Numbered from the stretch's first letter, positions 8,091 through 42,044 are shown. The stretch is DNA of 64,000 nt from a virus (IMGVR_UViG_3300028886_000053), one strand, 5' to 3'. Notes: a model not told the origin generated them from the letters alone. Translations and numbers: made by a program.

Positions 8091-8101
8091 AATGATTTTT
8101 A

Positions 8102-8630: not shown

Positions 8631-8748
8631 ATAAAACAAAGTTTTATGATGTCAATTAATAAGGAAAAACTTTGTAAAAAACCTCATGCCATCACCTGAT
8701 ATTTATACTGGACATATTGACGAGTTCCAGTTATGCAAAATTGCAAAG

Positions 8749-8821: not shown

Positions 8822-8830
8822 AAGGTAAAG

Positions 8831-8902
8831 TACGCCCGATGGGACTCGAACCCATGATATACAGGTTAAAAGCCTGCTGCCATACCACTTGGCTACGGAC
8901 GC
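8831..8902 (-). tRNA. tRNA-Lys (anticodon UUU)
   Basis: D-stem GCCA/TGGC. Anticodon stem GCAGG/CCTGT, loop CTTTTAA. T-arm ATGGGTTCGAGTCCCAT. Confidence 0.7.
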
Positions 8903-9050
8903 TTATTAAATTTATAAATGCCCGCAGGCTTACGTTTTCGTTTCATTTCTTTTTACCACCTTATAAATATATTATATAATAATTTTTTATTTTTTGCAAA
9001 TAAGCCGATAACGGGAATCGAACCCGTGTTTGAACCTTGCCTTACAATGC

Positions 9051-9407
9051 TTATAATGTATTTAATACCTCCTTTGCTTTATAATCTTCTAAATAAGACC
9101 AATTACTTCTTATTTCATGTTTTGTTAAATGAAGAGTTTTAGAAGTTGAACATTCTTTTATTGGAATCAAATAAAGTTCATTATCCCAAAATGTTGCAAA
9201 ATAGTCTATTTCTTTAGAGGTATAACCATTACTTTTATTTTGTTGCTTTGATGTTGTTACAGATACACATTTTATTTGAATAGCATCTTTTGTAGAAGGA
9301 TGAGGATGAGCAGTTTTTATTTGTATTTTTAATAATCTCCCTTTAACATCTACAATGCAATCATATCTGCTATCAGCATTTAAAGGTTGAGATACATCAT
9401 ATCCCAT
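9051..9407 (-). CDS. PD-(D/E)xK-like / homing-endonuclease-like protein (paralog of 973..1395)
   Basis: ORF track, 118 aa. The motif YDCIVDVKGRLLKIQIKT is shared with the copy at 973..1395. A T-arm-like hairpin (ACGGGAATCGAACCCGT) lies just 3' at about 9010-9030. Confidence 0.45.
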   Translation of the reverse strand: MGYDVSQPLNADSRYDCIVDVKGRLLKIQIKTAHPHPSTKDAIQIKCVSVTTSKQQNKSNGYTSKEIDYFATFWDNELYLIPIKECSTSKTLHLTKHEIRSNWSYLEDYKAKEVLNTL

Positions 9408-9479
9408 CTATATAAATCGCAACATAACTTGCATTTCTGTTATAAGACCTTTTTGATTTGTAGTATATTCCATTTTATT

Positions 9480-9960
9480 TTTATACACTATAAGTTTGTT
9501 AAGGCAAGGTCCCGTATTCACCACTATACGACATCGACAAAAACTAGGATATATGCGCACTCACCTAGACGACATTTTAGCACCTCGTCAGGCCGAGTCT
9601 ATTTTAGCTACCCACTCCCGAGGCCGCGTGTTTACCATACCGCAGGGATAGTTAGCTCTTAAGGCGGCACTAACAACAACCTCCCGTCCTAATTTTACAA
9701 CCAGTGGGTTGGCGGAGTTCTTTCTCAAGCGTCTACTTTTATCATAAAAGTAACAAACTCGATGGGTTACGGGCACCATCAGCTACGTCTATCCATGTTG
9801 TCGTACACAAATAGAGAAAAACGCCGCTATTGATAAAGCAGTAAATTCCTGGAATGTCCCAGCCAGTTAGGGACTAGGTACTTTCGTGCCTAGTTACCGG
9901 AGTTTCTTTTGAATAATATTTTAACTACTTAGATAATTACCTGTACCTCATTATCTTTTC
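9480..9960. ncRNA. GC-rich ORF-free structured region (candidate large ncRNA or degenerate intron). Identity unknown.
   Basis: GC content is locally far above the flanks. GNRA-type hairpins are present, e.g. CTAGGCACGAAAGTACCTAG. No credible ORF; 9588..9779 is compositional. Confidence 0.25.
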
Positions 9961-10000
9961 ATATAAAATACATTACAGGCTAACTCAACTTTATCCTTAA

Positions 10001-10073
10001 AGCCCCATGTGGGAGTTGAACCCACCTCCTTAGCTTGGAAGGCTAATATATTAAACCGATATACGAATGGGAC
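10001..10073 (-). tRNA. tRNA-Gly (anticodon UCC)
   Basis: Acceptor GTCCCAT/ATGGGGC. Anticodon stem TTAGC/GCTAA, loop CTTCCAA. T-arm GTGGGTTCAACTCCCAC. Confidence 0.65.
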
Positions 10074-10215
10074 AAATGCGAAATGCCTTGGCCTTCAGCA
10101 TTTCTATGCTTTTTTCTTGTCCTGTAAAAACTTTTAACAGCAGGGAATACATTGTTTTAAGAAATGGTATTCATCACTCTTTATATATATATTATATCAA
10201 AAATTTTTGAAAATA

Positions 10216-10596
10216 TCAATTAATAGCATATTTTTCAAGAAATTCGTCGGGATTATTAAAAAACATATCTTCTAATTCATTAAAATCCAAAGTAGGAAGT
10301 TTATTTTCATTCAACTGATGAATATCCCAAGCAGTATCTTCTCCATAAACTTCATCACGAATATTATCTACTTCTTCTCCACCTTCATCATAATCAATAT
10401 CTTCCCATTCACACTGGTCTTTAACGTCATCTTCAAGAGCATCAACAATATCTCCGTATTCATTGATTACTTCATAAGACATTTCCAATCCCAATGCTTC
10501 AGCTTCTTCTTCTGTGCCTTCAAAGATTTCATATCTTATCATTCCATGAAGTCCACCATAAAATTCATCATATCCTTTAATTGCCCAAATTGCCAT
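10216..10596 (-). CDS. highly acidic early protein (candidate DNA-mimic anti-restriction, Ocr/ArdA-like)
   Basis: ORF track, 126 aa, dominated by D/E runs (EDDVKDQCEWEDIDYDEGGEEVDNIRDEVYGED). It has its own consensus promoter at about 10600-10650 on the minus strand. Confidence 0.45.
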   Translation of the reverse strand: MAIWAIKGYDEFYGGLHGMIRYEIFEGTEEEAEALGLEMSYEVINEYGDIVDALEDDVKDQCEWEDIDYDEGGEEVDNIRDEVYGEDTAWDIHQLNENKLPTLDFNELEDMFFNNPDEFLEKYAIN

Positions 10597-10653
10597 ATAA
10601 ATTCCTTTCTTTTCTTTATTATGATATTATTATATCAAAAATTTTTAAAAACG

Positions 10654-10962
10654 TCAAAAAACTTCTGTCCAACCATAATGTTTTAAAAGTTGACGAATAT
10701 TATTAGCACCAACAGGATTCATTGAATGAATACGAAATTTACCAAAATAATTATATTCAACCAACCATTTGGCAATATCATAACCTGTTTTTCCTTCTCC
10801 TAAATCATGGTCAAAATCAATAACAAGAGAAGGAGCATAAGGAATTGTGGTCAAGGCGGCAATCGCTTCATCATACGATTTAACCCAGAGTGCATCCGGA
10901 ATAAGCGGCTGCCGTATGTCATCAATATAAATATAAATTTCTTTTTCTTTTTCCTTTTTCAT
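10654..10962 (-). CDS. hypothetical protein (DxD / DHD acidic motifs)
   Basis: ORF track, 102 aa. Confidence 0.4.
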   Translation of the reverse strand: MKKEKEKEIYIYIDDIRQPLIPDALWVKSYDEAIAALTTIPYAPSLVIDFDHDLGEGKTGYDIAKWLVEYNYFGKFRIHSMNPVGANNIRQLLKHYGWTEVF

Positions 10963-11010
10963 GGTATTATTATATCAAAAATTTTATAAAAAAACAAATA
11001 AAAATTGTCC

Positions 11011-11304
11011 TCACTTCATTATTGTTGAAGTTTTCCAATGTCTATAAAAAGATTTTAAAGTGGGATAACGACGAAGCCAATAAACATCATCTTTATTTGC
11101 TTCATACCATTCCTTTGCTTCATGCCAAGGCCAATAACTTATATAATCATGTATATCATAAGGTTCAAAAACTCGTCTATAAGATTTGCCACTAGGAACA
11201 TCATTTGTTCTACGAACCTTTTTATTGGCTTCTCGCTTTGCAAATTTAACTCTAGTAGGTCCACCGTCTTTAGTATAAGGATGTTTTTTATAAGAACGTG
11301 ACAT
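11011..11304 (-). CDS. hypothetical basic protein
   Basis: ORF track, 97 aa, K/R-rich. Confidence 0.4.
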   Translation of the reverse strand: MSRSYKKHPYTKDGGPTRVKFAKREANKKVRRTNDVPSGKSYRRVFEPYDIHDYISYWPWHEAKEWYEANKDDVYWLRRYPTLKSFYRHWKTSTIMK

Positions 11305-11337
11305 AATATTTTTCTCCTTTAGTTAAAAATACAACCA

Positions 11338-11417
11338 CATTAGGAATCGAACCTAAACTACTCCCTGCGGGGCGTGCTACGCGCTTAAATTAACTTCCAT
11401 TACACTATGTGGCTAGT
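11338..11417 (-). tRNA. tRNA-like gene with long variable region (type II-like). Anticodon unresolved.
   Basis: Acceptor AGCCACA/TGTGGTT. T-arm TTAGGTTCGATTCCTAA. The internal GC-rich segment does not give an unambiguous anticodon stem. Confidence 0.3.
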
Positions 11418-11706
11418 ACACCCCCAAGGAGTCGAACCTTGTGTACCTGGGTATAAGCCAGACCCCCAATACCGTCGAGGACGAGGTGCTTATGAATCCC
11501 AATATTTAGGATTCACATAATAATTATTTAAATATCCATTATAAAGAATTTTTCCACAATATTTACATCTCCAAGCACTTCGATAAATATGAGAAGTAGA
11601 AGTCTGATTAATTTTATCCCCATAAATATTACGAATAAATTCTATATTATTATGTTTGCAAAATAATTGTTTAATTTTTTTCATATTTATATAATTTGCT
11701 TTAAAT

Positions 11707-22204: not shown

Positions 22205-22440
22205 ATGTCAAATGCCCGCTGCCGATTCAAACCCTGCTGCCATATATCTGATCCCTCGATGCGGCAGCGGGTTGCATATGCCCTCGGTCTGGACCCGAGG
22301 GCCCTATGGGGGCTAAGGCCTGCTGCCTTAGCCACGATTCAACGCGTTAAACTTCTACACTTCAACGCGCTAAAGTCTGCGGACGCGGCGGGACCACTTT
22401 AGCGAAGTAACGCGTTACCGCGTTAAAGCGAAGTGCGTCC
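22205..22440 (-). ncRNA. GC-rich highly structured RNA of unknown identity, with a minus-strand promoter at about 22455-22490
   Basis: About 240 nt of more than 60 percent GC in an AT-rich context. It contains the palindrome GTAACGCGTTAC, a 9-bp stem CGCTAAAGT/ACTTTAGCG, and GCCCTCGG-TCTGGAC-CCGAGGGC. ORF 22205..22402 is compositional. Confidence 0.35.
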
Positions 22441-22544
22441 CCCTATTATTATATCACACTAGAGCAATGCGGTCAATCGGCAATTTGCACAATAATTTCG
22501 GGATTAGGTGGAAAAAATTTGTATATTTTTTTATGAAAAAAAAT

Positions 22545-22650
22545 TTGACATTGCGTGGGTTTTGTGGTAAAATCGGAGCGGGTCTGCGACCGCGCTCCGT
22601 CGCAGATGCCCCAACCCTTTATTATACCACAACCGGCGGCCGCCTGTCAA
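22545..22650. promoter_or_regulatory. face-to-face pair of extended -10 promoters flanking one GC hairpin
   Basis: Plus strand: TTGACA 22545, N17, TAAAAT 22568. Minus strand: TTGACA (rc at 22645-50), N18, TATAAT (rc at 22621-26). Both carry TG(G) extended -10. Hairpin CGGAGCGGGTCTGCGACCGCGCTCCG at 22574-22599 lies between them. Confidence 0.55.
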
Positions 22651-22834
22651 GTGCTTTTAACTGAAATTCTTCACTAAAATTTTCAGAATATTTTTTTACT
22701 AACTGATTATTACTAATTCTGTCAAAAAGCCATTCATCAAAAGATTTAGAATTAATAATTTTATCGGGAACATCAAAAACTCCTTCAATATTATAACTAC
22801 CTTCAATATATACTTTTGCCATTTTTATTCCTCC

Positions 22835-23026
22835 TTAAATAAATCTTCTTCCAGGATTAAGTATAATAAAACATTCCTCAAAATCCACTTCTTTTTCTTT
22901 TAATGTTTCATGATAGTCATACCAACTATCTGAACATTCATAATTGATTACGATTTGAGCGTTTTCGTATCCCAAATCAACTGCTAATTTGTAGAGTTCT
23001 TTAATTGTCATATTATTCTTCCTCAT
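22835..23026 (-). CDS. hypothetical protein
   Basis: ORF track, 63 aa. Confidence 0.4.
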   Translation of the reverse strand: MRKNNMTIKELYKLAVDLGYENAQIVINYECSDSWYDYHETLKEKEVDFEECFIILNPGRRFI

Positions 23027-23454
23027 TATCTAATCCATCAAACATTTCATCAAAGAGTGCGCAATCATCACATTCCTCTTTAGGATGTACACCTTCTTCC
23101 TCTTTCATGGAGCAAGTACCATCTTTTTTCCAATAAGGACAATCCCAACCATTTACAGGGCAATAGATTTTTTTCATTTGTTTAACTCCTTTTTATAAGG
23201 TATAATATCAAGAATCTCTGCACCCGAAAAATGGTCTGCAATAGTTGCATCTGCATTTTTTTCTGCTTCTTTTCTATTCTCTCCATAAACTGAAAAGCAA
23301 TCGAAAGAGTTATCAACCTTTAAAATAACAACTGCCCATTTCTTCATTTTATTTTACTTCCTTTCTGTTGATAATGTTATTATATCAAATTATAGGAAAA
23401 TAACAATAGTCAGATTAAACAAAAAACGCATTTAAAATTTGTGCAACATATATA

Positions 23455-23495
23455 TTGACATGCGAAGTGGCGCGTGGAGGGCGACCACGCGCCAC
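23455..23495 (+). promoter_or_regulatory. class-B cassette variant: TTGACA then directly the GC hairpin GTGGCGCGTGG...CCACGCGCCAC, preceded by a conserved 60-bp block
   Basis: Upstream block acaatagtcagattaaacaaaaaacgcatttaaaatttgtgcaacat is nearly identical to 27340-27397. There is no -10 hexamer. Confidence 0.4.
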
Positions 23496-23502
23496 CCAAT
23501 TC

Positions 23503-23805
23503 TTACTCCCAAGTTCTCACTCCGAGCAGAACCAAAACACTACAGATAGAAGCAAAAGCAAAAACTCCCATGTCCTCAGGAATTGCTTCCCATACTTCAG
23601 GATAGAGGTTGCGGACGCCGCTGAGAAGCATACCACCCCAGTTACCACCACATGCAGTACAGAACTTCAGCCATGTTTTCATGTCGCCATCAAATTTTCT
23701 TGCCTTGAAAGCGAGAGCAATAACTTCTTTACCCTGGTCACCCCAGTTTTCAACCAAAGTCCGCTGTGCTTCTTCAATAGTATTGTAGAGTTCAATATTT
23801 GTCAT
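23503..23805 (-). CDS. hypothetical protein
   Basis: ORF track, 100 aa. Confidence 0.45.
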   Translation of the reverse strand: MTNIELYNTIEEAQRTLVENWGDQGKEVIALAFKARKFDGDMKTWLKFCTACGGNWGGMLLSGVRNLYPEVWEAIPEDMGVFAFASICSVLVLLGVRTWE

Positions 23806-23818
23806 TTAAATCACCCCC

Positions 23819-24073
23819 TTAAGAAAAATCAAACTGCTCTACTGCACTGATATAAATAGTATCGTAATAGTCTTCACTCTCATTCTCATATTCAATAGAA
23901 ACGTATACCCCTGCTTTACAGAGAGCGACGAAGGCTTCTTTAAAATTCTGAATTGCCTTTACTTTTCTCTCATTATCTCTTACTTTCATGATACCATCCG
24001 CAGATTTCTGAATAGACGCAATCTGTGCATCAGTCATAGTTTCCATAGCCTTGATAATTTCTGTAAAATCCAT
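23819..24073 (-). CDS. hypothetical protein
   Basis: ORF track, 84 aa. Confidence 0.45.
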   Translation of the reverse strand: MDFTEIIKAMETMTDAQIASIQKSADGIMKVRDNERKVKAIQNFKEAFVALCKAGVYVSIEYENESEDYYDTIYISAVEQFDFS

Positions 24074-24315
24074 TTTGTTTTCTCCTTTTCTTTTGATAAT
24101 ATTATTATATCAGATAGTGATTAGAATGTCAAGTCAAATTCTGCATCTAACCACAAATCTACACAATATAATACTTCAATAGTAACTCTATCCTCGTCAC
24201 CATCTTCCATAGTTTCTGCTACCCATTTCCAATCTTCAAAAAATTTTTCTTTAAGATTAGGATAAAGGAAACATGCTTTATAGATACGGTTCAAAATTTC
24301 TTCTCTACTTTTCAT

Positions 24316-24612
24316 TTAAATCACCTCTACTTTCGGTCCTTTTCCTTTTTCTCTTGCAATATCTTCAAACTTCTGCCATGCCCAATACCAATATTCTTCA
24401 ATTTCTTCATAAGTAGCAATTTCGATTCTCTGAGCAAACATAATTACTCCAAAAGCAATTGCTCTACAATTCATTACTTCTTGTCTAGTATTTGCCCACA
24501 TTTCTGCATCTTCAAGACGGTCATCGACAAATTTTTTTACATCTTCAAAATCAAAATCTCTCATTTTTATCTCCTTTTTTATTTTTTTCCTTTCCTTACC
24601 TTGTAAATACAT
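24316..24612 (-). CDS. hypothetical protein
   Basis: ORF track, 98 aa. Confidence 0.45.
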   Translation of the reverse strand: MYLQGKERKKIKKEIKMRDFDFEDVKKFVDDRLEDAEMWANTRQEVMNCRAIAFGVIMFAQRIEIATYEEIEEYWYWAWQKFEDIAREKGKGPKVEVI

Positions 24613-24685
24613 TATAACAAATAAGATTTAGTTTGTAAAGTATAAAAAATGGGATAAAATAAATAAAATTTTGTGTAGATTTTCT

Positions 24686-24781
24686 ATTGACAAAAAGTGC
24701 GGTCGTGTGTTATAATTAAAATTTCGGCGCGGTTTGCCAGGAGCGCGCCGACCAAAAAGAGGTGGGTATTCATACCCACCT
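24686..24781 (+). promoter_or_regulatory. class-B promoter cassette: TTGACA-N18-(GTGTG)TTATAAT, then 9 nt, then two GC hairpins. It faces the 3' end of gene 24803..25147.
   Basis: TTGACA at 24686-91, TATAAT at 24710-15. Hairpin 1 is GGCGCGGTTTGCCAGGAGCGCGCC. Hairpin 2 is GAGGTGGGTATTCATACCCACCTC. On the minus strand hairpin 2 is followed by TTTTTGG, which makes it the terminator of that gene. Confidence 0.55.
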
Positions 24782-24802
24782 CTGCGACATTTTGGGGAGA
24801 GG

Positions 24803-25147
24803 TCAGGCGAGGACGAACCTCGTGACCTTGCCCTCCTTGACCTTGGCAACTACCTCAGCCTTGACCATCTGAGACAGAATGGCGGAAGCCTTCTGACAGG
24901 AGATGGCGAGAGCGGAGCCAATCTCAGTTGCGGTCATGCCATCGACCTCCTCGGTCAGCATGTCAACAATCTTGACCTTAAACTCCTCATTCTCACGCTG
25001 GGTCTTGGTGGGCTTCTTCAGCGCACCGCCAGAGTTGCGCTTTGCCAACTGCGCCTTGAGAGCGTTCAGACGCTCAATAGCCTCATCATTGAGGTTGCCC
25101 TCGATTGCAAGATTAATAGCCTCTGCGTAAGTCATAGCCTTTGCCAT
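24803..25147 (-). CDS. winged-helix DNA-binding protein, paralog 1 of 3 (GC-rich gene)
   Basis: ORF track, 114 aa. Shares MTYAxAIxxAIxGN..E.LExLxALK.QLxKRxSG..LTKTQ....DGMTATEVG...V.CQKASA.L.....V.K.KVGK.VRF with 25944..26288 and 27551..27901. Confidence 0.6.
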   Translation of the reverse strand: MAKAMTYAEAINLAIEGNLNDEAIERLNALKAQLAKRNSGGALKKPTKTQRENEEFKVKIVDMLTEEVDGMTATEIGSALAISCQKASAILSQMVKAEVVAKVKEGKVTRFVLA

Positions 25148-25844
25148 AATTCAACACCTCTTTCTTTAAAATGTTTTTTGTTTTCTTTTGTTATATTTAT
25201 TATACTATATTTAATTTTTATTGTCAAGTATTTTTTTATTTTTCTAAGTTACTTTTTTGTGGGTATTTATGTTCTAGCACGCCCACAGGATGAAATGGTG
25301 TGCGCACACCTTAAAACCTATCGTGCTTTTCTACTCATTCCCATACACTTAGTGTCCTTTCTTTTCCTTACCTTCTATAATTATTATATCAAAGGATTTT
25401 TATTTTGTCAAGAAGTTTTTTTATTTTCCCGAAGGAAGTAAGATTCTAAAAATAAGAACCAGTATCCAAAATGCCGTAGCCATCTTCCATGAAAAGGCAA
25501 CTACAAAAGAACCGATGGTAAAAATACCAATCCAGTGGAGTATTCCACAAGCAATAGCAAGAAGTCCTGCGGTAATAAGATAGTCAAGAATAAATGCTAA
25601 AATAATCATTTGTTACTCCTTTCTTAATTTCTATAATTATTATATCAAATGTTATTTTATTTGTCAAGAGGTTTTGAAATTTTTTCAAAATCCGTTTCGT
25701 TACCGAGTATCCACAGAAAAGAGAGCCTCTTTGAGGACTTTTTATCTCTTTCCTCTTGACAATTATAATTATAGCAAATATTTTTTTATTTGTAAAGTAC
25801 AAAAAACGGGTAAAAATTTAATTATTTTTGTGTAAAATTACCAT

Positions 25845-25908
25845 TGACAAAAAGTGCTTGGGTGTGATATAATTGAATTTTCGGCGCGAGACAAAGGCTC
25901 GCGCCCCG
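25845..25908 (+). promoter_or_regulatory. class-B promoter cassette (TTGACA-N17-TGATATAAT plus GC hairpin CGGCGCGAG...CTCGCGCCCCG)
   Basis: TTGACA at 25845-50, TATAAT at 25868-73, hairpin at 25882-25908. It lies immediately 3' of gene 25944..26288. Confidence 0.5.
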
Positions 25909-25943
25909 AGCATTTCTACTCAGGGCGTTTGCTTTGACAAGGG

Positions 25944-26288
25944 TCAGGCGAGGAAGAACCTCACCTGCTTACCCACCTTGTCCTTGCGGACACGCTCGTC
26001 AGCGACAAGCTTCTTGAGGAGTGCGCTTGCACGCTGGCAAGTCACATCCACCGCATCGCCGACCTCGGTGGCGGTCATGCCATCCTCGGCATCCACAAGC
26101 ACCTCGACGATGCGCTCCATCAGTTCCAGACCCTCTTTCTGAGTCTTGGTAAGACCATGCTTACCGCTACCTCTCTTGGCAAGCTGAACCTTGAGAGCCT
26201 CAAGCTTCTCAATAACCTCAGCATCAACATCGCCTGCGATGGCACGGTCAATAGCAACTGCATAAGTAAGTTTCTCCATACTTAACAC
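25944..26288 (-). CDS. winged-helix DNA-binding protein, paralog 2 of 3
   Basis: ORF track, 114 aa. Confidence 0.6.
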   Translation of the reverse strand: MLSMEKLTYAVAIDRAIAGDVDAEVIEKLEALKVQLAKRGSGKHGLTKTQKEGLELMERIVEVLVDAEDGMTATEVGDAVDVTCQRASALLKKLVADERVRKDKVGKQVRFFLA

Positions 26289-26682
26289 CTCTTTCTTAAA
26301 AATGATTTTTTTGTTTTCCTTATCTTTAAGTATATTATACTATAAGATTTTTAAATTGTCAATATGAAATTTTTATTTTTTTAATTGTTAAAAGGTTGTC
26401 ATCCTTGTCTATCGGAAACATTAGGGCGCCTACTAAATTCCTACCTCATGGCAACCCTTTAACAATTATTATTATAACAGATTGATAGTTACAAGTCAAG
26501 CCTTTTTTTCAAGATTTACATGCGCATGGTTATCTAAATTGGGGATGTGCTAACCGCCTTGACATTCGGCTTTCTTCCCTTACCTTGTAAATATATTATA
26601 TAAAATTTTTTTTAATTTTGCAAGAGGTAATAATAACTAAAATTATGGGAACATAGGGATGAAAATTTGTGTAGTTTTTTAC

Positions 26683-26746
26683 TTGACAAAAAGTGCGGCG
26701 GGTGGTATAATAGTGAATTTCGGCGCGAGGCGAGGCTCGCGCCCCG
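26683..26746 (+). promoter_or_regulatory. class-B promoter cassette
   Basis: TTGACA at 26683-88, GGTGGTATAAT at 26706-11, hairpin CGGCGCGAGGCGAGGCTCGCGCCCCG at 26720-46. It ends 4 nt past the stop of gene 26752..26964. Confidence 0.5.
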
Positions 26747-26751
26747 CAGAA

Positions 26752-26964
26752 TTACTTCCACAAGTCTGTGTAATCATGGTCTTTAAACCATTTGTCACAG
26801 AAATTAAAAGGGAAATAAACAATAATGATGCAAATCCCAATTTCAAGAAGGATAGGAGAGCAAACTGCCCACCAGGACCAATTAATTAGACCAGTAAGTT
26901 TTAAAACGATAAAAATAATCCACAACAGTTCAAAAATACCCATTTTTATTCTCCTTTTACCCAT
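26752..26964 (-). CDS. small membrane protein
   Basis: ORF track, 70 aa, hydrophobic. Confidence 0.4.
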   Translation of the reverse strand: MGKRRIKMGIFELLWIIFIVLKLTGLINWSWWAVCSPILLEIGICIIIVYFPFNFCDKWFKDHDYTDLWK

Positions 26965-27290
26965 TTTATGAATTTAGCCTTTTCATATTCTTTTTTAGTA
27001 GATTCATTTACATGAAGATGAAAACTAACAATCTCTCTGCCAGCCACATTTTCAAGTTCCTCTTTGGCTTCTTTTATTCCCCCCTCTAAAACAAGATAAA
27101 CAAAAACTGGAGGAGTGAGCAAGGGGCGAATGATGTAGTAAGCAGGCTTTTTTAAATAAACAGTAAGATTATAACCATATCCACCATCTACTTCTTCAAG
27201 CACTCCCTCGGTCATCCAGTCTAACAACCAGTCAAACTTTTTCTTTTTTAATCCTAAGATGTAATTAATCTCTCCATGTGTAAGTTTCAT
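26946..27290 (-). CDS. hypothetical protein
   Basis: ORF track, 114 aa. Confidence 0.45.
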   Translation of the reverse strand: MKLTHGEINYILGLKKKKFDWLLDWMTEGVLEEVDGGYGYNLTVYLKKPAYYIIRPLLTPPVFVYLVLEGGIKEAKEELENVAGREIVSFHLHVNESTKKEYEKAKFIKWVKGE

Positions 27291-27397
27291 TTTGTTTTCT
27301 CCTTTTCTTTTGATAATTCTATTATACTTAATTATAGGAATAATACAATAGTCAAAATAAACAAAAATCGCATCAAAAATTTATGCAACATTCCAGT

Positions 27398-27463
27398 ATT
27401 GACAAAAAATGGCGCGGGGCGGTGTCCGCGCGCCACAAAACAAAAAGCACCCCCGAAGGGGTG
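27398..27463 (+). promoter_or_regulatory. class-B cassette variant (TTGACA plus hairpin GGCGCGGGGCGGTGTCCGCGCGCC plus second hairpin GCACCCCCGAAGGGGTGC)
   Basis: Paralogous to 23455..23495, including the 60-bp upstream block. Confidence 0.4.
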
Positions 27464-27504
27464 CCCGCACAAGAAAGGAGGAAACCAAATATTGAAAATT
27501 GATA

Positions 27505-27551
27505 GGGTAGGTGGGGAATCGAACCCCACCGAATCCAGTACCCTAGTAGGT
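27505..27551 (-). pseudogene. tRNA 3'-half-like fragment (T-arm plus acceptor 3' strand) just 3' of gene 27551..27901
   Basis: Minus strand reads GGTGGGGTTCGATTCCCCACCTACCC (T-stem/T-loop/acceptor-like). No matching 5' half is present. Confidence 0.3.
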
Positions 27552-27901
27552 CAGTCGACCGCATAGAAGCGGACGACCTTACCTACCTTGTCCTTGCGGA
27601 CAGTGCCACCCTCGACCATCTGGCGAAGGATAGCGGAAGCCTTCTGGCAAGTAACTGCGATGGAGTTACCCACCTCAGTGGCAGTCATGCCATCAACCTC
27701 GGCTCTGAGATTCTCAAGAATCACGTTCTTGAGTTCCTCGTTTTCCTTCTGGGTCTTGGTCAGACCCTTGTGACCCGAACCACGCTTGGAAAGCTGAACC
27801 TTCAGTGCCTCAAGCCTCTCAAGCACTTCCTCATTGATGTTGCCAGCGATTGCGTTGTCAATTGCTACTGCGTAAGTCATCTTGTTTGCCATAAATAACA
27901 C
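27551..27901 (-). CDS. winged-helix DNA-binding protein, paralog 3 of 3
   Basis: ORF track, 116 aa. Confidence 0.6.
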   Translation of the reverse strand: MLFMANKMTYAVAIDNAIAGNINEEVLERLEALKVQLSKRGSGHKGLTKTQKENEELKNVILENLRAEVDGMTATEVGNSIAVTCQKASAILRQMVEGGTVRKDKVGKVVRFYAVD

Positions 27902-28039
27902 CTCTTTCTTTTGTTTATTTCTTTATTTGTTATATTTATTATATCTTATTTTTTTAAGTTTGTCAATATGAAATTTTATTTTTTTATGATTATTTCGCGG
28001 ATTTGGCGCCTTATACCGCATGGATGCTAGTATTTATGT

Positions 28040-28560
28040 TATAGCGCCCTAGCCACCTACATGGCGCTTATTTTTCATGCCAATTCATTTCCATTGACTC
28101 CTTTCCCGACTTTTTTAGTTCGCAACTGGAACTGTCGTTAAAAATTTAATTTAATTTAATTTTTTACTGTGGGACTTACTGCCGAAGGGCATCCGCCGTT
28201 CTTTTTTTAGGTCTTACTGCCCTTTATATCGGAGGGTCTCTCATTCTGTTCACTTCCTTCCTTTATCTTATGTATTTATTATAACACAAGATTTTTTATT
28301 TGTCAACAGTTTTTTTAAGATTTTGAAGTTTTCCGAAGGCTTTCGACCGTACCTTTAGGCATCAGCCCCTTGCCCTGTACTTCTTTCTTTATCTTATGTA
28401 CTTATTATAGCAGATATTTTTTAAATTGTCAAGAACTTTTTTATTTTTTATTTCTTGACTTTACAAGGAACACGTGGGAGCAAGCCTTTTGCATTTTCGC
28501 GTATTGGGATTGAGTAGGCTTTTTCATTTCCTCTTTCCCTTACCTTGTAAATATATTATA
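28040..28560 (-). other. cluster of at least 3 consecutive consensus promoters driving very short transcripts (micro-ORFs and/or sRNAs)
   Basis: Reverse-complement promoters lie near 28265-28330, 28385-28440 and 28540-28590. Downstream are small hairpins (TGCC-CTTC-GGCA) and a 28-codon ORF with an SD. Confidence 0.35.
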
Positions 28561-28631
28561 TCAAAACTTTTTTTGTTTGTAAAGTACAAATTTTGGGAAG
28601 ATCTTTGTGCAAAATGCCGATGAAAAAGTGC

Positions 28632-28736
28632 TTGACAAAAGTGCTGGCGTGTGGTATAATTGAAATTTGGCCGCGGACCAGCTGCAAGCGCCAGTCCGCG
28701 GCCCGCCATTATACCACGCCCGCCAGATTTTGTCAA
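28632..28736. promoter_or_regulatory. face-to-face pair of extended -10 promoters flanking one 35-nt GC hairpin
   Basis: Plus strand: TTGACA 28632-37, N17, (GTGG)TATAAT 28655-60. Minus strand: TTGACA (rc 28731-36), N17, (GTGG)TATAAT (rc 28708-13). Hairpin GGCCGCGGACCAGCTGCAAGCGCCAGTCCGCGGCC at 28669-28703. Confidence 0.55.
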
Positions 28737-28798
28737 GAGTTTTTTGAAAAAAATTATGCACAAAAATAGCGGACTGCTTTTGTGCAGTCCGCTGATTT

Positions 28799-29194
28799 TT
28801 ACTTTTTAGGGGGGCGGTGCTTTACAAGTTTGACGGTGTAACAATTGTTACCAAATGTGAACGAAAACTCCGCCTCGTTTTTAATTTCTGTAACAATTCC
28901 GCCTGCTCCCTCGATGGGGATTCTGCAAAGGTTCAGAAGTTCTTTCTTTTCCTCATCTACCTTGCGCTCTTTCTTTGTGGCTTTTCTAGGCTTTTCGGCT
29001 TTTTCGTAACGCTTAACAGATTTTGCTTTTGCAGTCAGTTCTTCAACTTCCTCATTCTCTGTATAGTCGTTATCATCAAGCCACATTGCAATTGCTTCCT
29101 CTTTGGAAATATCAAGAAGTTTCATGTTCTTTTCAATTTCCGCATCGGGAATATTGATTTCCTTACCATTAAAATTGTATTTCATGCTTATCAC
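28799..29194 (-). CDS. hypothetical protein
   Basis: ORF track, 131 aa. Confidence 0.5.
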   Translation of the reverse strand: MISMKYNFNGKEINIPDAEIEKNMKLLDISKEEAIAMWLDDNDYTENEEVEELTAKAKSVKRYEKAEKPRKATKKERKVDEEKKELLNLCRIPIEGAGGIVTEIKNEAEFSFTFGNNCYTVKLVKHRPPKK

Positions 29195-30584: not shown

Positions 30585-30650
30585 TTGACAAAAGTGGCTC
30601 GGGTGTGGTATAATGGATTTTTCGCCGCGGCCCGAGGACCACGGCGCGGT
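30585..30650 (+). promoter_or_regulatory. class-B promoter cassette
   Basis: TTGACA at 30585-90, (GTGTGG)TATAAT at 30609-14, hairpin CGCCGCGGCCCGAGGACCACGGCGCG. Confidence 0.5.
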
Positions 30651-31679
30651 CAAAAATTCAGTCTTCATAGACAATATCAGCATAGCCATCTTTCATTTCA
30701 AATTCATAATCATGATTGGCAATAGCAAAGCAAGCATTTGTAAAATCTTCATCTTCCTCAAAAATTGTAGATAACTGAGAAAGAATACTTACTAATTCTT
30801 CAGACACGGTTAAAGTGCGATTCATTTCAATTTTCATTTTTTATCACCTCATTTTTTTATTTTATTTAAATAGGATAGGTAGGAGTCGAACCTACATCTT
30901 GCCAAGTGTTTTCCCAATTAAACTACTTTAATGGAATTCGAATCCATATCTCTCGGCTGTGCTTCCCGATGTCACTTACTATCCTTTATTAATTTGCGTC
31001 CATCCTACCAGCCTGGGGGTTCCAGACGCTCCCCGCATGTTGCCTCACATTTATATACCGCAAAGTAGGACTTCGGCTTGCGGTGGTGGGACTTTATCAA
31101 CAGGACTTACTGCGACAACTTGGCGTCTTGGGTCTTTCCCTTGCCTGTATCCCTCATCTTGTATATTTATTATATCAAAGGGGTTGGAGTTTGTCAACCC
31201 CTTTTTTTAAATTCTTGCCTTGATTTCAGCGATTTTTGCCAAAGTCTTGGGACTTGCCTTGGCAAGACGCTCCGCCTGTTTCTTAGGCTTTTCCGCAAGA
31301 TACTTATGTCTTGCCATCTCCTCATCGGGCGGAGTGATATTAATAAAAGCAAAGATTGCATCGCCGTACTGATTAACAGGTGTCCAACATACTCTTCTCA
31401 TAATCTTATCTCCTTTTTTGTGATTTGTTTTCCTCTTGATGATTTTATTATAGCATTTTATTTGATTTTGTCAAGGGGTTTTTTCTGCAATCCGTTAATT
31501 TTTTTTCGTTTAAGGAGCGACCTTAGCGGAGTTGAACCGCCCACCCATCAAGGCTTGCCTTGGGCTACCCTTCTCCCCTTGACAATTATAATTATAAATG
31601 AATATTATTAAAAATACAATATCGGAATATTGCACAAATTATGGGATCTATAATTAAATATTTTTATTCAAATTTCTTA

Positions 31680-31752
31680 TTGACAAAATGGGGCTACGTG
31701 TGGTATAATGAAATTTCGCCGGCGCTCGGTAGTGGGCGACCGAGCGCCGGCC
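31680..31752 (+). promoter_or_regulatory. class-B promoter cassette with 13-bp perfect GC stem
   Basis: TTGACA at 31680-85, (GTGTGG)TATAAT at 31704-09, hairpin CGCCGGCGCTCGG-tagtgggcga-CCGAGCGCCGGCC. Confidence 0.5.
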
Positions 31753-32042: not shown

Positions 32043-32114
32043 GATTTTCTCCTCTTGATGATTAAAAGTTTTCTTTACCTTGTATACTTATTATAATATA
32101 GGGGTTGAGTTTTG

Positions 32115-32402
32115 TCAACCCCTATTCTCTTTATAATAAGAGATAATGTTCATTGCCATTTCTTCTACTGTTGCTTCTGTTACATCTTCTTCATCCCAAG
32201 GAAAATCCATGCTTTCTACATGACCTTGATTTGCTCCATAACTTCCATTATGGCAGACAACATCTCCTGCACACCAAGGGAAAGTAAATTGATAACCATC
32301 AAAAAGAGGTGTGATTGTAAAAGGAACCTTATTTACTAAAAGATGTGCCATTAATTTGGCAGTAGTTTCAAGATATTTTTGGGGATTAGCATTAAACATC
32401 AT
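32115..32402 (-). CDS. hypothetical protein
   Basis: ORF track, 95 aa. Confidence 0.45.
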   Translation of the reverse strand: MMFNANPQKYLETTAKLMAHLLVNKVPFTITPLFDGYQFTFPWCAGDVVCHNGSYGANQGHVESMDFPWDEEDVTEATVEEMAMNIISYYKENRG

Positions 32403-33057
32403 TTTTTATACCTCACTTTATATTGTTATTTGTTGATATGATTATTATACTTTATTTAATAGGGGATGTCAACCCTTATTTTTAAATACTTGAAAAAAGT
32501 TGGGGAAATATTCCCATTCCTACTAAAAATAGTACAATAGTCAGAAGAATGAAGATAGCACTGTCCGAATCTTCATTTAAACTTTTCAGCACAGTTGTGA
32601 AACAAATGCAAGCAGTAAAAATTATATAAAGCCAATCCATTTTTATACCCCCTTATGCAATTCTATAAATAATATTGGAGCGGAAGCCGAGCCAATACTC
32701 GAATCCATTGAAAAATCCGAGGAATGTAGCAGACGGCAGTTCAAATCTGGAAGTGATAGTCTTATAGACTACAGTATTCAGTGCAAGTCCTCTGCGATTC
32801 AGAGCCATCTCTAATTTAGTCATAGTCATGGTTTTTTCTCCTCTCGGTCTTGATTATTTGATCCTATGGAGTACCACTGGTTCATGTAGGTGGCGGATAC
32901 CGAACTCCATAGTGGGGATACCACTGGTTCATGTAGGTGGCGGATACCTCATCCCCTTGACAAGTATAATATTATCATACCCTAGCCTAGATTGCAAGTA
33001 GTAATAATGCACAAAATTCGGGATTTTCTAGGCTCAATGTTTGTGCAGATTGCCAAT

Positions 33058-33131
33058 TGACAAAATGTGGCGGCATGTGGTATACTGGAATTTCGTCGCG
33101 GGGCGCGCAGGGACCGCCGCCCGCGCGACGT
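33058..33131 (+). promoter_or_regulatory. class-B promoter cassette
   Basis: TTGACA at 33058-63, (GTGG)TATACT at 33082-87, hairpin CGTCGCGGGGCGCGCAGGGACCGCCGCCCGCGCGACG. Confidence 0.5.
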
Positions 33132-33836
33132 CCAAAAAATTTTTATCTCCTGTACCAAGGTGCGAATTTCTTTTCTCCATCCCATGCTTCAATTTCACAG
33201 ACTTCCCATTTGATTTCTTCATATCTTTTAAGAAGTTCTTCTACTGTGTCAAACTCTTCACACTGAGTATCATCATCATATTGATCAAAATCATAAGTGA
33301 GAGCATATCTTTTTTCTTCTGTCATTTTTTCCACTCCTTTTCTTTTTCTTTATATATATATTATATCATAAAAAAATTTTTTTGTCAATAGGAAATTTTT
33401 TGCCCTTAGAAGTAATTTCTAAGGGCTTTCTTACCGTCTGCCCTATTGTATTTCTTTTTGTCCTTATGGACTCTAGTTCCAGTATTGAAAGTTACAAGAA
33501 CTCTATTCTGCTTATCATGTTCTCTTTTCATTTTTTTATTAGGGGTCTTTGTTGCTAACATTTCGATCAATTCCTTTCTTTTGATAATCTTATTATATTA
33601 TAAAAAATCTAGTGTGTCAATAGTTTTTTTAAAAAGATCGAGAAGTTTCTCAGTGATTTTCAACTTCTCCACTGGCGACTATTTACTACTCGGCTTTTTC
33701 TCCGACTGAGCCTAGGATTGTCAGATATTTTACCTTTTGCTTTATGGAGGCGTCTGCTATTCCCCTCGCTAGGTAAGTAAGGAATCGAACCTTATTCAGA
33801 CCTTTTTCTCTTACCTTGTATCTTTATTATATAATA

Positions 33837-33858
33837 GGGGTTGAGGTTTGTCAACCCC
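33837..33858. promoter_or_regulatory. bifunctional hairpin GGGGTTGA-GGTTTG-TCAACCCC. Plus-strand terminator (followed by T6). On the minus strand it carries the -35 TTGACA of a promoter.
   Basis: Same element recurs at 31181-31202, 32101-32122, 34057-34078, 34821-34846, 35208-35229, 35466-35488 and 29997-30017. Each is 17 nt from a minus-strand TATAAT. Confidence 0.5.
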
Positions 33859-34504
33859 TTTTTTAAATTGTTATTGTTTTATTATCATTATCAACATCAA
33901 AGCAATCAACGTCATCTGTCTGTAAAGTGTATGTATCATAAAGATTTTTTCCTAAAAGAATATCATAATCAACTACTCCATTTGCTACTGCCCAATCATA
34001 AAGATCTTTAATAGTCATTTTTTATTTCTCCTTTGTTTTTTCTTTATTATATAATAGGGGTTGAGGTTTGTCAACCCCTTTTATTTACATTTCATAATAT
34101 TTATTTCTTGCGTGCACCCTTGCGAGTTCTATAACCTTTGTCGGTTTCGGCTCATCTTCCCTATAGTATCTAAGGATCTGAGCAGGTCTTGCGATGAGTT
34201 TTGTTACAAGGATTCCGGTTCTCTGATTATATACAAGGATGAGTGCAGTATCGGTGATTTTATGAACTTCCGGTCCATTTCTGTGACCACGGTCTACAAC
34301 CACTTTCTTTATAACAGTTCCTGTTCCGATCTTGGCGATAATGGTTTCACGTGCTTGGCGGTCCTTGGTATAGTGCTTGCTGTTCATCTTGGTATCTCCT
34401 TTCCTTTTGTTGATTCTAGTATACCATACCCACCGCCAATTGCAATAGGCAAAATACACAAAGATTTCGGGATCTTTTTGTGCAGATTGCCATGCAGATT
34501 TTGC

Positions 34505-34613
34505 TTGACAAAAACCTCGACCTGTGGTATAATGTTGATTCTCGGTGCGCGGCGGAATGAAGTGGACGCCCGCGCGCCGGCTGACAAAAGGAAAAGAGGA
34601 CCTCAGTCCTCTT
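34505..34613 (+). promoter_or_regulatory. class-B promoter cassette with two hairpins
   Basis: TTGACA at 34505-10, (CTGTGG)TATAAT at 34528-33, GC hairpin at about 34544-34580. Second hairpin AAGAGGAC-CTCA-GTCCTCTT is followed on the minus strand by a U-run. Confidence 0.5.
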
Positions 34614-34857
34614 CCCAATCCCACTCTGTATCATCGAGTGCGGCTTCCATAGCGTCCAGTTTAATCTGATAGGGCTTGTCCGCATTTCTTTCAAGCCATC
34701 CTGCGAACTGGATTGTGTCCCTATGTTCGAATCCTTTGACTCTGATTACTCTTGTAAGCATCTCCTCGTGTGTCATCATTTTTCAGATCCTCCTTTGTTT
34801 TTGTTAAGTTTATTATATCAAAGGGCTTGGCTTTTGTCAAGCCCTTTTTTAAACTTT

Positions 34858-35166: not shown

Positions 35167-35491
35167 TTTTATTACTTCCTTTCCTTTGATGATTTAAGTA
35201 TATCATAGGGGTTGTAATTTGTCAACCCCTATTTTTATCTTTTCTATAAAGAAAATCATCAAGTTCAATCTCTCCAGCTTCATCTAAAAAATAATCTTGA
35301 CCAACGCTCTCTTCAGGGAAAAAGTTGTTCCATGTTTCTCCACTATGAAAACGACAAAACTCTTCAGGTGTCATTTCAACTTCTCTTTCATAAGGAATAT
35401 AAGCGGTAAGTTTAACTTTCATTTTTTAATCTCCTTTGCTTTTCTATGGTTTAAGTATATCATAGGGATTGAGGTTTGTCAACCCCCTTTT

Positions 35492-35974: not shown

Positions 35975-36004
35975 TTGACAAGTTGGTTGCCTGTGTGGTA
36001 TAAT
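35975..36004 (+). promoter_or_regulatory. class-B-type promoter (TTGACA-N18-TGTGGTATAAT) at the entrance to the iteron region
   Basis: Exact hexamers with a TG extension. It is followed by a 30-bp palindrome. Confidence 0.5.
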
Positions 36005-36048
36005 GGTTCGGCCTGCAGCGCTGTAATGCGCTAAAGTGCTAAAGTCAT

Positions 36049-36078
36049 GAGATTGTTAGTTAATTAACTAACAATCTC
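36049..36078. repeat. 30-bp perfect palindrome GAGATTGTTAGTTAATTAACTAACAATCTC
   Basis: Read directly from the sequence. It sits between the class-B promoter and the promoter of gene 36196. Confidence 0.8.
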
Positions 36079-36195
36079 ACGTCCGTGAAATTATCTGTTA
36101 ATTGTTTAAATTGTTTGAAAATAATAAATTTATCAAAAATACTTGCAATCTAATATCAAAGTGCTATAATAAACTTAACAAAAGAAAACAACCAC

Positions 36196-36423
36196 TTGAA
36201 AGAAAAGGTGAACAAAATGACAACTTACAGAGAACAGTACATCGAAGACATGCACATGATGGATAAGAACGGAAACGCTCTCACCGCTGAAGAAAAAGAA
36301 CTTCTCAAAGAAGAATATAAAAGAAACGTGATCGACCTCGGAAAAGAAGAAACTCTTTATTTCGTAGCACTTGACTTCAACGTAATTGTAACAGTAGTAA
36401 GACAGTTAGTAGAAAAGCCTTGA
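36196..36423 (+). CDS. hypothetical small protein (only plus-strand gene in this region)
   Basis: ORF track, 75 aa. Its own promoter TTGCAA-N17-TATAAT and SD lie at about 36150-36195. Confidence 0.5.
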   Translation: MKEKVNKMTTYREQYIEDMHMMDKNGNALTAEEKELLKEEYKRNVIDLGKEETLYFVALDFNVIVTVVRQLVEKP

Positions 36424-36429
36424 AAAAGG

Positions 36430-37300
36430 CTTTTCTTTTTATACAAAATAAATGTTAAATAATTAACATGCTTGTTTGTTAAATAACTAACAATCAATAG
36501 TTTGTTAGTTAATTAATTAATTAACATACTTTAATACTTTAATACATTAACACTTTAGTGTGTTAAAACATCATCACTTTATCACTTTGACTCTTTATCA
36601 CTTTAGTGTATTGAAGTGTGTTAGATCCTTAACAAGATCGTTTGTTAAATAACTAACGAAGTCAAGTCTGTGAGCGACACTTCAGTCCTTTAGTGCATTA
36701 AAGTGTGTTATTTTTTTAACAAGTTTAGGACTGTGCCACATTAACACTTTACCGCATTGAAGTGTGTTAAATTTTTAACAAAGAGTGGCGAGTAAGCGAT
36801 TGTTAAATTATTAACACTTAAATAACCGTTTCCAAGTAAATACAAAATAAGTGTTAAAAGTTTAACACACTCTGGTGCTTGATCACTTCACCGTGATGAA
36901 GTGTGTTAAACTTTTAACACTTAAATAACGTTTGTTATGAATTGAAGGATTAAGTGTGAAATTTTTAACAAGGTCTGGCTCTGTGAAAAATTTCACAATC
37001 ACACTTCTGAACCAAAACTCGGCTCAGACCGCCGCGCCTGAGCCGATGAAAAATGAGAGGGTATTTTCAAAAGAGAGGAATTTTGTTGGGACTAGACTAC
37101 GCGGCGTTCACCTAAAATTTTTCTCTCTCTACGTAACGTACCTAAAAACTTTTCGGGGGGGTAATATTTCGGGATAATCTGTGAAAAATTTCACAAAATG
37201 GTTTGCCCTCGACATTCCCGACACCCCAAATTTTTAAAAAACTAAATAACGGCAACTCCTCGACCCCAAATTTTTTAAAAAATAAAAACGACATCCCAAA
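36430..37300. repeat. ORF-free iteron/palindrome array (candidate origin of replication or centromere-like site)
   Basis: At least 9 copies of the inverted-repeat unit GTGTTAAA-N-TTTAACAC and variants. Perfect palindrome TGTGAAAAATTTCACA twice. GC hairpin CGGCTCAG-ACCGCCGCGC-CTGAGCCG. Three tandem CCCAAATTTTTTAAAAAA repeats at 37215-37300. Confidence 0.5.
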
Positions 37301-40823: not shown

Positions 40824-42044
40824 ATGCAAGAAAAAGAAGATAACGTTATTCCTACTGAAGATGACGCTGTAGATACACAAGAGTTAAAACTTGATTATAC
40901 GATCTAGTCACCAGTGGAACGTAATGAATTAGTAAAAAAGATTGTAGAATCCTTACCTCCCTAGAAGTTAACGAATAGATACTTAGAAATATTAGCGGAT
41001 TATATTATATTTGCAAAAACGAAAGAATAGAGAAAAAAACAAGAGTCTATTAATACTGAAAATAGAATGATAACAATAAATAAACGGTAGACTTCATTTT
41101 AGGGACTAGTAGGAAAATTTGAAAATGGAGAAGATGGAGTATATAACTTATTTACAGAAGATAAGAACATTATCTTTACTCCAAAGATTTCAATTACAGA
41201 AGAAGATTTGGCGGAGATTCCAGCCTTACGAGAATTACGTGCAGCTATTGAAGAGGTTTAGAAACTTTAGAAAACAGCTCGTGGTAAACGTAAATATCTT
41301 CTTAAAAAACAAATTATTTAGATGCGGCAAGATCAGTATGTTATTAAAACTTCTTATAAACAACCGATCTTTTGTCTTAATGCCGTAAAAAATTTCAGTT
41401 CAATGAGTTTTGAAGATAACATTTCTATATCTCCAGATGGAAAAATAAAAGATAAGAGTTTAATATCTTTTATAAATCCTAAACATATCTCTGCTCTATT
41501 GAGAAATTATTCCCGATTAAAAGAAGATTGTTATGGAAAATTTTATACTGATGGATATTATATGATGGAAGTTTTAGATGAATTAGTGGACAAAGCTTTA
41601 AAAGAAAAATATCCTCTTTATTATAGTTTATTGATATATAAAATAGATGGGAAGTCTAATTTAGAAATTCAAAAACTATTAGAAGAAGAACATGGAATAA
41701 GACATTCAGTTGAATATATTTCTTCTCTTTGGCGAAATAAAATTCCAAAATTAATTGCAGAACAGGCCGAAATTGATTTTTTACATTGGTATTATTTAGA
41801 AAAAGAAAAAGGGAAATGGAAAAAATGTTCTCGATGTGGAGAAGTAAAATTAGCGCATAATAAATTTTTTTCTAAAAATAATTCTAGCAAAGATGGATTT
41901 TATTCAATCTGTAAATAGTGCAGAAATAAAAAGAAACGCATAACTCCTAAACCAGAAATTATAAAATATAGAGAAATTGAAAACGGAGTTGTAGTAAAGG
42001 AGGAGATATGGCGAAAAAGAAATGTAGCAAATGTTAGCGAGTAA
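40824..42044 (+). CDS. hypothetical late protein, TAG-recoded (about 9 in-frame TAG), C-terminal CxxC...CxxC zinc ribbon, ends TAA
   Basis: Single frame from ATG 40824 (frame 0) through standard-code fragment 41322..41918 to TAA at 42042-44. The C-terminus is CSRCGEVKLAHNKFFSKNNSSKDGFYSICK-Q-CRNKKKR. Confidence 0.5.

Follow-up and report, generated by a model that had tools for sequence, protein, structure and literature searches.

The 64,000-nucleotide (nt) stretch of viral DNA analysed here (IMGVR_UViG_3300028886_000053; hereafter the window, always at its full length) carries two loci, at 22545-22650 (locus 1) and 28632-28736 (locus 2), in which promoters face each other across a GC-rich palindrome. 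The window is AT-rich (GC content about 33%) and belongs to a large tailed double-stranded DNA (dsDNA) phage with terminase, portal and capsid genes; the source is an uncultivated gut or rumen phage that reads TAG as a sense codon, and the window spans its early region. The first 11.5 kb (1-11500) contain 22 minus-strand tRNA genes, one of them a suppressor with a CTA anticodon, together with a tmRNA and a ROOL RNA. Small minus-strand open reading frames (ORFs) fill the region between 22.6 and 40.7 kb and have no in-frame TAG at all, and the plus-strand genes from 40.8 kb to the end of the window (64000) read TAG as sense, with as many as 20 such codons in a gene. This plus-strand late block, which starts with a phage sigma-like gene, codes for the sigma-like factor, terminase, portal and capsid proteins. 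Neither the near nor the distant search mode found a DNA match to the window among 50,697 GenBank phage records; the closest deposited genome is that of the human-gut phage phAss-1 (OQ749652; portal identity 39%), which its authors placed in a code-15 clade with predicted Clostridia hosts (PMC10607447). From the gene layout and the kinship with phAss-1 we infer that both loci probably belong to an early region of host-takeover type, in a phage that relies on the sigma-A RNA polymerase of its host.

According to the original prediction, each locus comprises two convergent extended -10 promoters directed at a single GC hairpin, and this arrangement has been borne out (Table 1): the promoters follow the consensus, and shuffled sequences predict none of them. 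A strict promoter pattern is present 24 times in the window and in none of 100 dinucleotide-preserving shuffles, while the face-to-face pattern TGGTAWAAT-N30-60-ATTWTACCA is found exactly twice, at these two loci, and never in the shuffles. The promoter pairs keep their full consensus at both loci when the flanking context is considered, with a single weakness, namely that the minus promoter of locus 1 lies in the 3' end of an ORF, overlapping the last 10 codons of a 66-amino-acid (aa) frame (22622-22822), and lacks the upstream box described below. At each locus 47 base pairs (bp) separate the inner ends of the two -10 elements, and from one outer -35 to the other the pair covers 105-106 bp. 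At locus 2 the hairpin begins 8 nt past the plus -10 and stops 4 nt short of the minus -10, with a folding energy of -24.6 kcal/mol in the plus RNA and -34.9 kcal/mol in the minus RNA; at locus 1 the two GC stems (22574-22599 and 22583-22606) are mutually exclusive and less regular than that of locus 2. Locus 2 is conserved in two phages about 80-90% identical to the window at the nucleotide level (L010 and L025), where changes in the stem are compensatory. For locus 1, no orthologue was found by BLAST of the fetched loci, a protein-guided scan of IMG/VR likewise returned no relatives, and an exact-protein look-up gave identical copies only.

If transcription is assumed to begin 7 nt downstream of each -10, its start sites are predicted to lie near 22580 (+) and 22614 (-) at locus 1 and near 28667 (+) and 28701 (-) at locus 2. 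The facing starts are thus about 34 bp apart, and the perfectly complementary part of the paired transcripts would therefore amount to only about 35 nt, essentially the hairpin itself. The earlier expectation of short, perfectly complementary transcripts is plausible for these 5' segments and not supported for the shortness: only the plus transcript of locus 2 would reach a canonical terminator, located just beyond the facing promoter, and therefore the transcripts are not necessarily short. The GC hairpin is indeed shared by both promoters, but it is not a terminator at which they aim, since no U-tract follows it in either direction.

Table 1. Coordinates of the face-to-face loci, class-B units and neighbouring features in the window
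Feature	Position	Strand	Description
Locus 1, class-B promoter against flanking genes	22545-22573	+	TTGACA-17-TAAAAT, TG-extended, 11/12 consensus positions
Locus 1, GC-rich palindromic core	22574-22606		two alternative 7-bp stems, CGGAGCG/CGCTCCG and TCTGCGA/TCGCAGA
Locus 1, gene-direction promoter	22621-22650	-	TTGACA-18-TATAAT, TG-extended, 12/12 consensus
Locus 2, class-B promoter against flanking genes	28632-28660	+	TTGACA-17-TATAAT, TG, 12/12; kept in L010 and L025
Locus 2, shared GC hairpin	28669-28703		perfect 10-bp stem, 15-nt loop
Locus 2, gene-direction class-B promoter	28708-28736	-	TTGACA-17-TATAAT, TG, 12/12 consensus
Bidirectional intrinsic terminator	28767-28794		ends gene 28799-29185; would stop locus 2 plus transcript
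Class-B antisense unit	24687-24751	+	promoter 24687-24716, hairpin 24724-24751; then gene-direction terminator 24758-24783
Class-B antisense unit	25844-25905	+	hairpin 25883-25905
Class-B antisense unit	26683-26743	+	hairpin 26722-26743; homology with relatives breaks at hairpin
Class-B antisense unit	30585-30649	+	hairpin 30623-30649; gene 30658-30837 has its stop codon 9 nt away
Class-B antisense unit	31680-31751	+	13-bp stem, 31718-31751
Class-B antisense unit	33057-33130	+	-10 TATACT; hairpin 33094-33130
Class-B antisense unit	34505-34579	+	hairpin 34543-34579; then gene-direction terminator 34591-34616
Atypical class-B promoter	35975-36045	+	weaker downstream GC stem; borders ORF-free repeat region
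Decayed unit	27399-27435	+	TTGACAAAAAA directly followed by GC hairpin; no -10
Decayed unit	23450-23495	+	TTTGTGCA box, TTGACA, 11-bp GC hairpin; no -10
Candidate GC-rich structured RNA	22205-22476	-	about 240 nt; own promoter TTGACC-17-TATAAT at 22448-22476
Three paralogous genes	24803-25147, 25944-26279, 27551-27892	-	111-114 aa; GC 0.52-0.55 against 0.33 for the region
tRNA-like minihelix	27440-27560	-	follows gene 27551-27892
Weak tRNA-like Rfam match	30871-30932	-	29.9 bits, equal to gathering threshold
Third promoter class	31169-31204, 32090-32125, 33826-33859, 34046-34079, 34812-34843, 35197-35232		-35 within a hairpin
ORF-free region	36000-37300		58-nt repeat in five copies (36530-36920); perfect inverted repeat of 24 nt (36848-36923)
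Phage sigma-like gene	40824-42044	+	first gene of the late block

The two loci had been regarded as a special kind of unit, which they are not: they are the double form of a multi-copy family of promoter and hairpin cassettes, here called class B, that is far commoner with a single promoter. A class-B unit consists of an upstream TTTGTGCA box, a TTGACA element, a GC-rich spacer, TGTGGTATAAT, a short A/T leader and a GC hairpin; the promoter carries a TRTG-extended TATAAT, and the hairpin lies at the predicted start site or a few nt from it. The window contains at least 10 such units, distributed between small ORFs from 22.5 to 36 kb, and its plus-strand single units are all oriented against the surrounding minus-strand genes. 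An exact-pattern scan of IMG/VR yielded 26 loci on contigs of 15-190 kb, many of them with several units, and in total 91 distinct class-B units were collected across the relatives. When orientation was judged by the purine fraction of the flanks (about 0.41 indicating genes on the opposite strand), 69 units were found to point against the flanking genes, 18 with them, and 4 were ambiguous. A few units point both ways around one shared hairpin, which is the form of the two loci. A scan for promoters placed face to face gave 36 loci, with a GC hairpin between the promoters in at least 17, and the double form is present in L025, L010, L011, at least 17 further viral contigs and phAss-1. The last of these carries class-B units near 129-135 kb that are unannotated in its record, which annotates no regulatory features; the ordinary promoters of phAss-1 (L065/L066, OQ749652; about 89-135 kb) share a uniform palindromic spacer, TTGACATAAAAAAATTTTTATGATATAAT, and a common leader, ATAGAAAGTGAGAAAGGGG. 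In a collection of bacterial genomes, every match that has a GC hairpin and is oriented antisense to its flanks comes from a small AT-rich contig in a metagenome-assembled genome from rumen or gut, and we take these contigs to be mis-binned phage. The other matches in that collection are ordinary promoters without a hairpin, besides a GC-stem promoter before a tRNA gene on a 56-kb Ruminococcus contig (L089).

The hairpin-associated promoters form a discrete class. In a comparison of 89 of them with 325 other consensus promoters, the upstream TTTGTGCA-like box is present in 74% of the former and in only 4% of the latter, the TG extension in 98% versus 74%, and TRTG in 74% versus 34%, while the GC content of the spacer is 52% versus 28%. 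The hairpins themselves vary in sequence but not in form. Among 74 distinct hairpins there are 50 distinct arm heptamers, and the basal pairs are Watson-Crick in 511 of 518 cases (a figure somewhat inflated, as the stems were picked by a pairing search), compared with 229 +/- 13 when the partners are shuffled. GC and CG interchange at every stem position, and in orthologous units of close relatives the promoter and flanks are nearly invariant and the stem changes with compensation. All this suggests that the hairpin is under structural selection, with the sequence left free and the pairing kept. Its position is likewise conserved: 58 of 69 antisense units have the start of the stem 7-9 nt past the -10, 14 of 18 gene-direction units have it at 3-4 nt, and face-to-face units join both geometries at one hairpin (TGGTATAAT-N3/4-stem...stem-GAAATTTCC-ATTATACCA), with an asymmetry that is conserved in diverged contigs. 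Compared among themselves, the copies seem too unlike one another (50 arm heptamers in 74 hairpins, loops unrelated) for an RNA anti-CRISPR or a mimic of a solitary CRISPR repeat.

The position of the stem is tied to the -10 and not to a stop codon or terminator, which argues that the hairpin is part of the class-B transcript, at its very 5' end. The reading that we favour, albeit tentatively and with somewhat less than an even chance of being right, is that class-B units place a hairpin close to the start site of a convergent or antisense transcript. In the common unit, a strong promoter placed just downstream of an early gene or its terminator would fire back into that gene, giving rise to convergent transcription and a cis-antisense RNA that begins with a stable 5' stem-loop. 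In the double loci, a second class-B promoter, pointing in the gene direction, would use the same palindrome from the other side, each transcript would pass over the opposing promoter, and the paired RNAs would share a complementary, hairpin-forming 5' leader of about 35 nt. The net effect would likely be to insulate or tune the neighbouring early transcription units. In Firmicutes, 5' stem-loops shield RNA from 5'-end-dependent decay, and the class-B stem-loop would be expected to stabilise its RNA in the same manner. If transcription starts about 7 nt after the -10, only 0-4 unpaired nucleotides are predicted at the 5' end, which matches the published requirements for such protection: BsRppH needs two or more unpaired 5' nucleotides and prefers at least three, and 5'-terminal stem-loops stabilise mRNA (PMC3997798).

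A double locus would probably be held by one polymerase at a time, i.e. its promoters would compete. An open complex covers about -55 to +20, and at start sites about 34 bp apart two such complexes would overlap, which argues for competition rather than collision. The suggestion that the pairs yield double-stranded RNA or act as a collision-based switch is accordingly retained only in part: complementary 5' segments are predicted and mutual interference is plausible, but exclusion between promoters is likelier than a collision between elongating polymerases. It is established that promoters which overlap or converge can interfere with each other, both by competition and by collision (PMC6593788).

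Several points weigh against this interpretation in terms of hairpin-capped transcripts. The start sites are assumed and promoter firing is predicted from the sequence. Untranslated polymerases are reported to lose most head-on collisions with translated ones (PMC6593788), which would limit interference inside genes. The geometry of locus 1 is atypical, and it has no orthologue among the fetched sequences. The stems are almost purely Watson-Crick, and therefore they do not indicate which strand's RNA (or DNA) is selected; mismatches in 69 units comprise 5 G-T and 11 A-C, and the strand test based on them turned out to be uninformative, since 189 canonical terminators are also unbiased (14 versus 19). 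The hairpins change faster than their flanks and appear to have been exchanged between units, and a mutational or recombinational process could produce such fast change as well as RNA selection. Finally, only 12 of the 65 antisense units carry a canonical terminator for their own direction of transcription, which implies that most class-B transcripts should run on, as antisense RNA, into the 3' portion of the gene upstream; the first own-direction terminator lies within 1.8 kb in only 31 of 77 units. A more regular "mirror unit", in which the antisense RNA ends at a terminator inside the promoter of the gene it covers, was considered and rejected as not general: it is found in 4 of 8 window units, and antisense units that end at the first gene-direction promoter number only 7 of 77. 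A type I toxin-antitoxin function was also rejected, as the genes facing class-B units encode mostly small acidic proteins or weak winged-helix paralogues, with one hydrophobic product.

In the gene direction the terminators suggest a different role for the palindrome, that of an insulator or back-up terminator, where the palindrome and a polymerase tightly bound at the opposing promoter stop read-through from the upstream early gene, the hairpin serving either as a 3' structure of the gene-direction RNA or at the DNA level, as a GC-rich stretch downstream of the adjacent terminator that strengthens it, and the antisense RNA being a by-product. We regard this explanation as unlikely, although it accounts for the placement of the units exactly between a gene or its terminator and the gene-direction promoter that comes next. 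In 35 of 65 units the hairpin has a separate canonical terminator for the gene direction right beside it, in about half of the window units the hairpin is the sole one after the stop codon, and one decayed unit (27410-27435) is a true, canonical terminator when read in the gene direction. Perfect palindromes work on both strands, moreover, and A-C mismatches slightly exceed G-T on the unit strand. On the other hand, the gene-direction tail of the GC stem is GAAAUUUCC and not a U-tract, and in the unit direction five or more T among the 9 nt after the stem occur in only 1 of 65 units. The stem keeps a fixed distance from the antisense -10 and not from the stop codon or terminator of the gene; judging from footprint sizes, the hairpin DNA would already be covered by a polymerase waiting at the antisense promoter before any read-through arrived; and units in which a gene-direction promoter is followed by a hairpin are left unexplained.

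The exchange of hairpins between units brings in recombination. The promoter and palindrome may together form a portable site of homology, or a structure-prone one, at which small early genes are swapped, with promoter activity being secondary. At the hairpins at 26741 and 30633 the window ceases to be homologous to L010 or L025, and the same promoter is followed by different gene cassettes, albeit in a small sample; the hairpin of window unit 26683 equals that of unit 744 in L010, and the loop of locus 2 equals that of unit 6180 in L010, in both cases between non-orthologous units. The concept is documented for the promoter-early stem-loop cassettes (PeSLs) of phage T4 (PMC4122927, PMC2839356). 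Homology alone, however, needs neither promoters with 12/12 consensus, nor a fixed distance from the -10 to the stem, nor a strict GC palindrome, nor the antisense bias, and exchange is compatible with hairpin-capped antisense transcription rather than exclusive of it; as an explanation in its own right we rate it slightly below the insulator. A broader proposal, which we find improbable to the same degree as the insulator, is that class-B units constitute a dedicated, genome-wide antisense system of TAG-recoded Clostridia phages. Factor-controlled promoters (with the TTTGTGCA box and GC-rich spacer) could launch decay-resistant, hairpin-capped antisense RNAs from the 3' ends of selected host-takeover genes, which could thereby be timed or shut off, and the face-to-face form could serve as a mutually exclusive two-way node. 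Alternatively or additionally, the strict and fast-changing GC palindromes could be structure-specific recombination sites driving cassette exchange, loosely by analogy with integron attC.

Two further explanations concern the nucleic acid that carries the hairpin. Trans-acting small hairpin RNAs, for instance decoys for a host RNA-binding defence protein or nuclease, would fit very strong promoters that drive little beyond a hairpin, about 10 copies per genome, the confinement of the units to phage contigs and their absence from large bacterial contigs; some units have a bidirectional terminator and would give RNAs of 70-130 nt. Yet stems and loops differ among copies and orthologues, which makes a sequence-specific partner unlikely, most units have no own-direction terminator, and none shows a match to an Rfam covariance model at the gathering threshold or at E<=1. 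We thus consider such RNAs distinctly improbable. Even further down the scale, and in our opinion hardly to be expected, is a single-strand promoter or priming site, where a hairpin of single-stranded DNA (ssDNA) restores the promoter as a duplex, in the manner of Frpo on the F plasmid or the sso of rolling-circle plasmids. Locus 2 does fold into an imperfect hairpin of about 50 bp with the promoter arms paired (-37.1 kcal/mol, z -8.9), but such pairing follows trivially when two promoters of like class face each other, locus 1 folds poorly (z -2.2), palindromes at the promoter level occur in only 2 of about 11 window units, and for this phage, tailed and with a dsDNA genome, an ssDNA stage is neither known nor indicated.

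Other features accompany the class-B series in the window. Directly downstream of locus 1 in the gene direction lies a candidate structured RNA (-114.7 kcal/mol, z -6.2; no Rfam match), whose CTTTAGCG/CGCTAAAG motifs recur near 36020-36045 and beside the class-B units of L006 and L002. Three paralogous genes of high GC content show weak winged-helix matches and are possible regulators; each of them is followed by a class-B unit or a remnant of one. The last of the three is followed by a tRNA-like minihelix comprising an acceptor-like stem (TAGGGTA/TACCCTA) and a T-arm (GGTGGGGTTCGATTCCCCACC), then by an UUUCCUCCUUUCUU stretch resembling the 3' end of 16S rRNA, and then by a terminator; this region is conserved in L010, L025, L018 and L020 and received no call from ARAGORN or Rfam. 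Another tRNA-like match within the early region, weak and also without an ARAGORN call, is placed between a promoter and gene 30658-30837. A third class of promoters has the -35 within a hairpin (GGGGTTGACAAAnnCAACCCC) with runs of A and T on its flanks, and thus represents a bidirectional terminator overlapping a gene-direction promoter, which in four cases would stop the next class-B antisense transcript. At the right edge of the class-B series, the ORF-free region with its repeats looks like an origin or iteron region.

If class-B units indeed act as hairpin-capped antisense promoters, phAss-1-like code-15 Clostridia phages, a large and almost unstudied gut and rumen clade, organise their early genes unlike the model phages, each genome having a strong antisense promoter in about 10 copies as a compact, portable device to insulate or shut off early genes. 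The units would furthermore provide Gram-positive promoters that are very strong and well defined, along with leaders that stabilise RNA, and, as the cassettes mark sites of early-gene exchange, they could help to delimit gene cassettes in otherwise unannotatable metagenomic phage genomes. No description of class-B units was found in the literature, and the phAss-1 paper mentions neither promoters nor hairpins. The arrangement is absent from the papers, Rfam models and annotated phage genomes that were searched, but it combines known ideas.

The closest of these are the PeSLs of T4-type phages, which were proposed to let small early genes swap (PMC2839356, PMC4122927). In both cases, short composite motifs of a promoter and a stem-loop are present in many copies between small variable early genes, the structure of the stem-loop is kept while its sequence varies, and the cassettes coincide with junctions of insertion, deletion or replacement between close relatives (here in the small sample of 26741 and 30633). 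However, PeSLs are composites of a terminator and a promoter for co-directional genes in T4-like myoviruses of Gram-negative hosts, whereas the class-B promoter fires into its stem-loop, with 69 of 91 units lying antisense to the genes on either side, the stem at the predicted start site is strictly a GC palindrome and has no U-tract, and the phage is unrelated, TAG-recoded and of Clostridia type.

Face-to-face promoters are known from coliphage 186 (pR/pL), P2 and P22 (Pant/Psar), where they form single switches about 60-70 bp apart with known repressors, each promoter driving defined genes or one antisense RNA. As in class B, the promoters face each other within tens of bp in a control region of a phage, with interference and complementary 5' RNA (here predicted); in class B, by contrast, the predicted starts are only about 34 bp apart (with overlapping complexes), and the promoters have one GC hairpin in common and are members of a multi-copy family. 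The OOP RNA of phage lambda is a single 77-nt transcript with its own terminator and an RNase III-dependent effect. Its constitutive promoter lies downstream of a gene and fires back into the gene's 3' end, as class-B promoters are predicted to do, but class-B units, with about 10 copies per genome, have an own-direction terminator in only 12 of 65 cases. Finally, 5'-terminal stem-loops that act as stabilisers have been described for ompA and papA of E. coli and for ermC, aprE and the leader of phage SP82 in B. subtilis (PMC3997798), and share with class B a stable stem-loop a few nt from the (here predicted) 5' end. They reside, however, on protein-coding mRNAs, while the class-B hairpins, judging from the predicted 5' ends, are found mostly on antisense and apparently non-coding transcripts.

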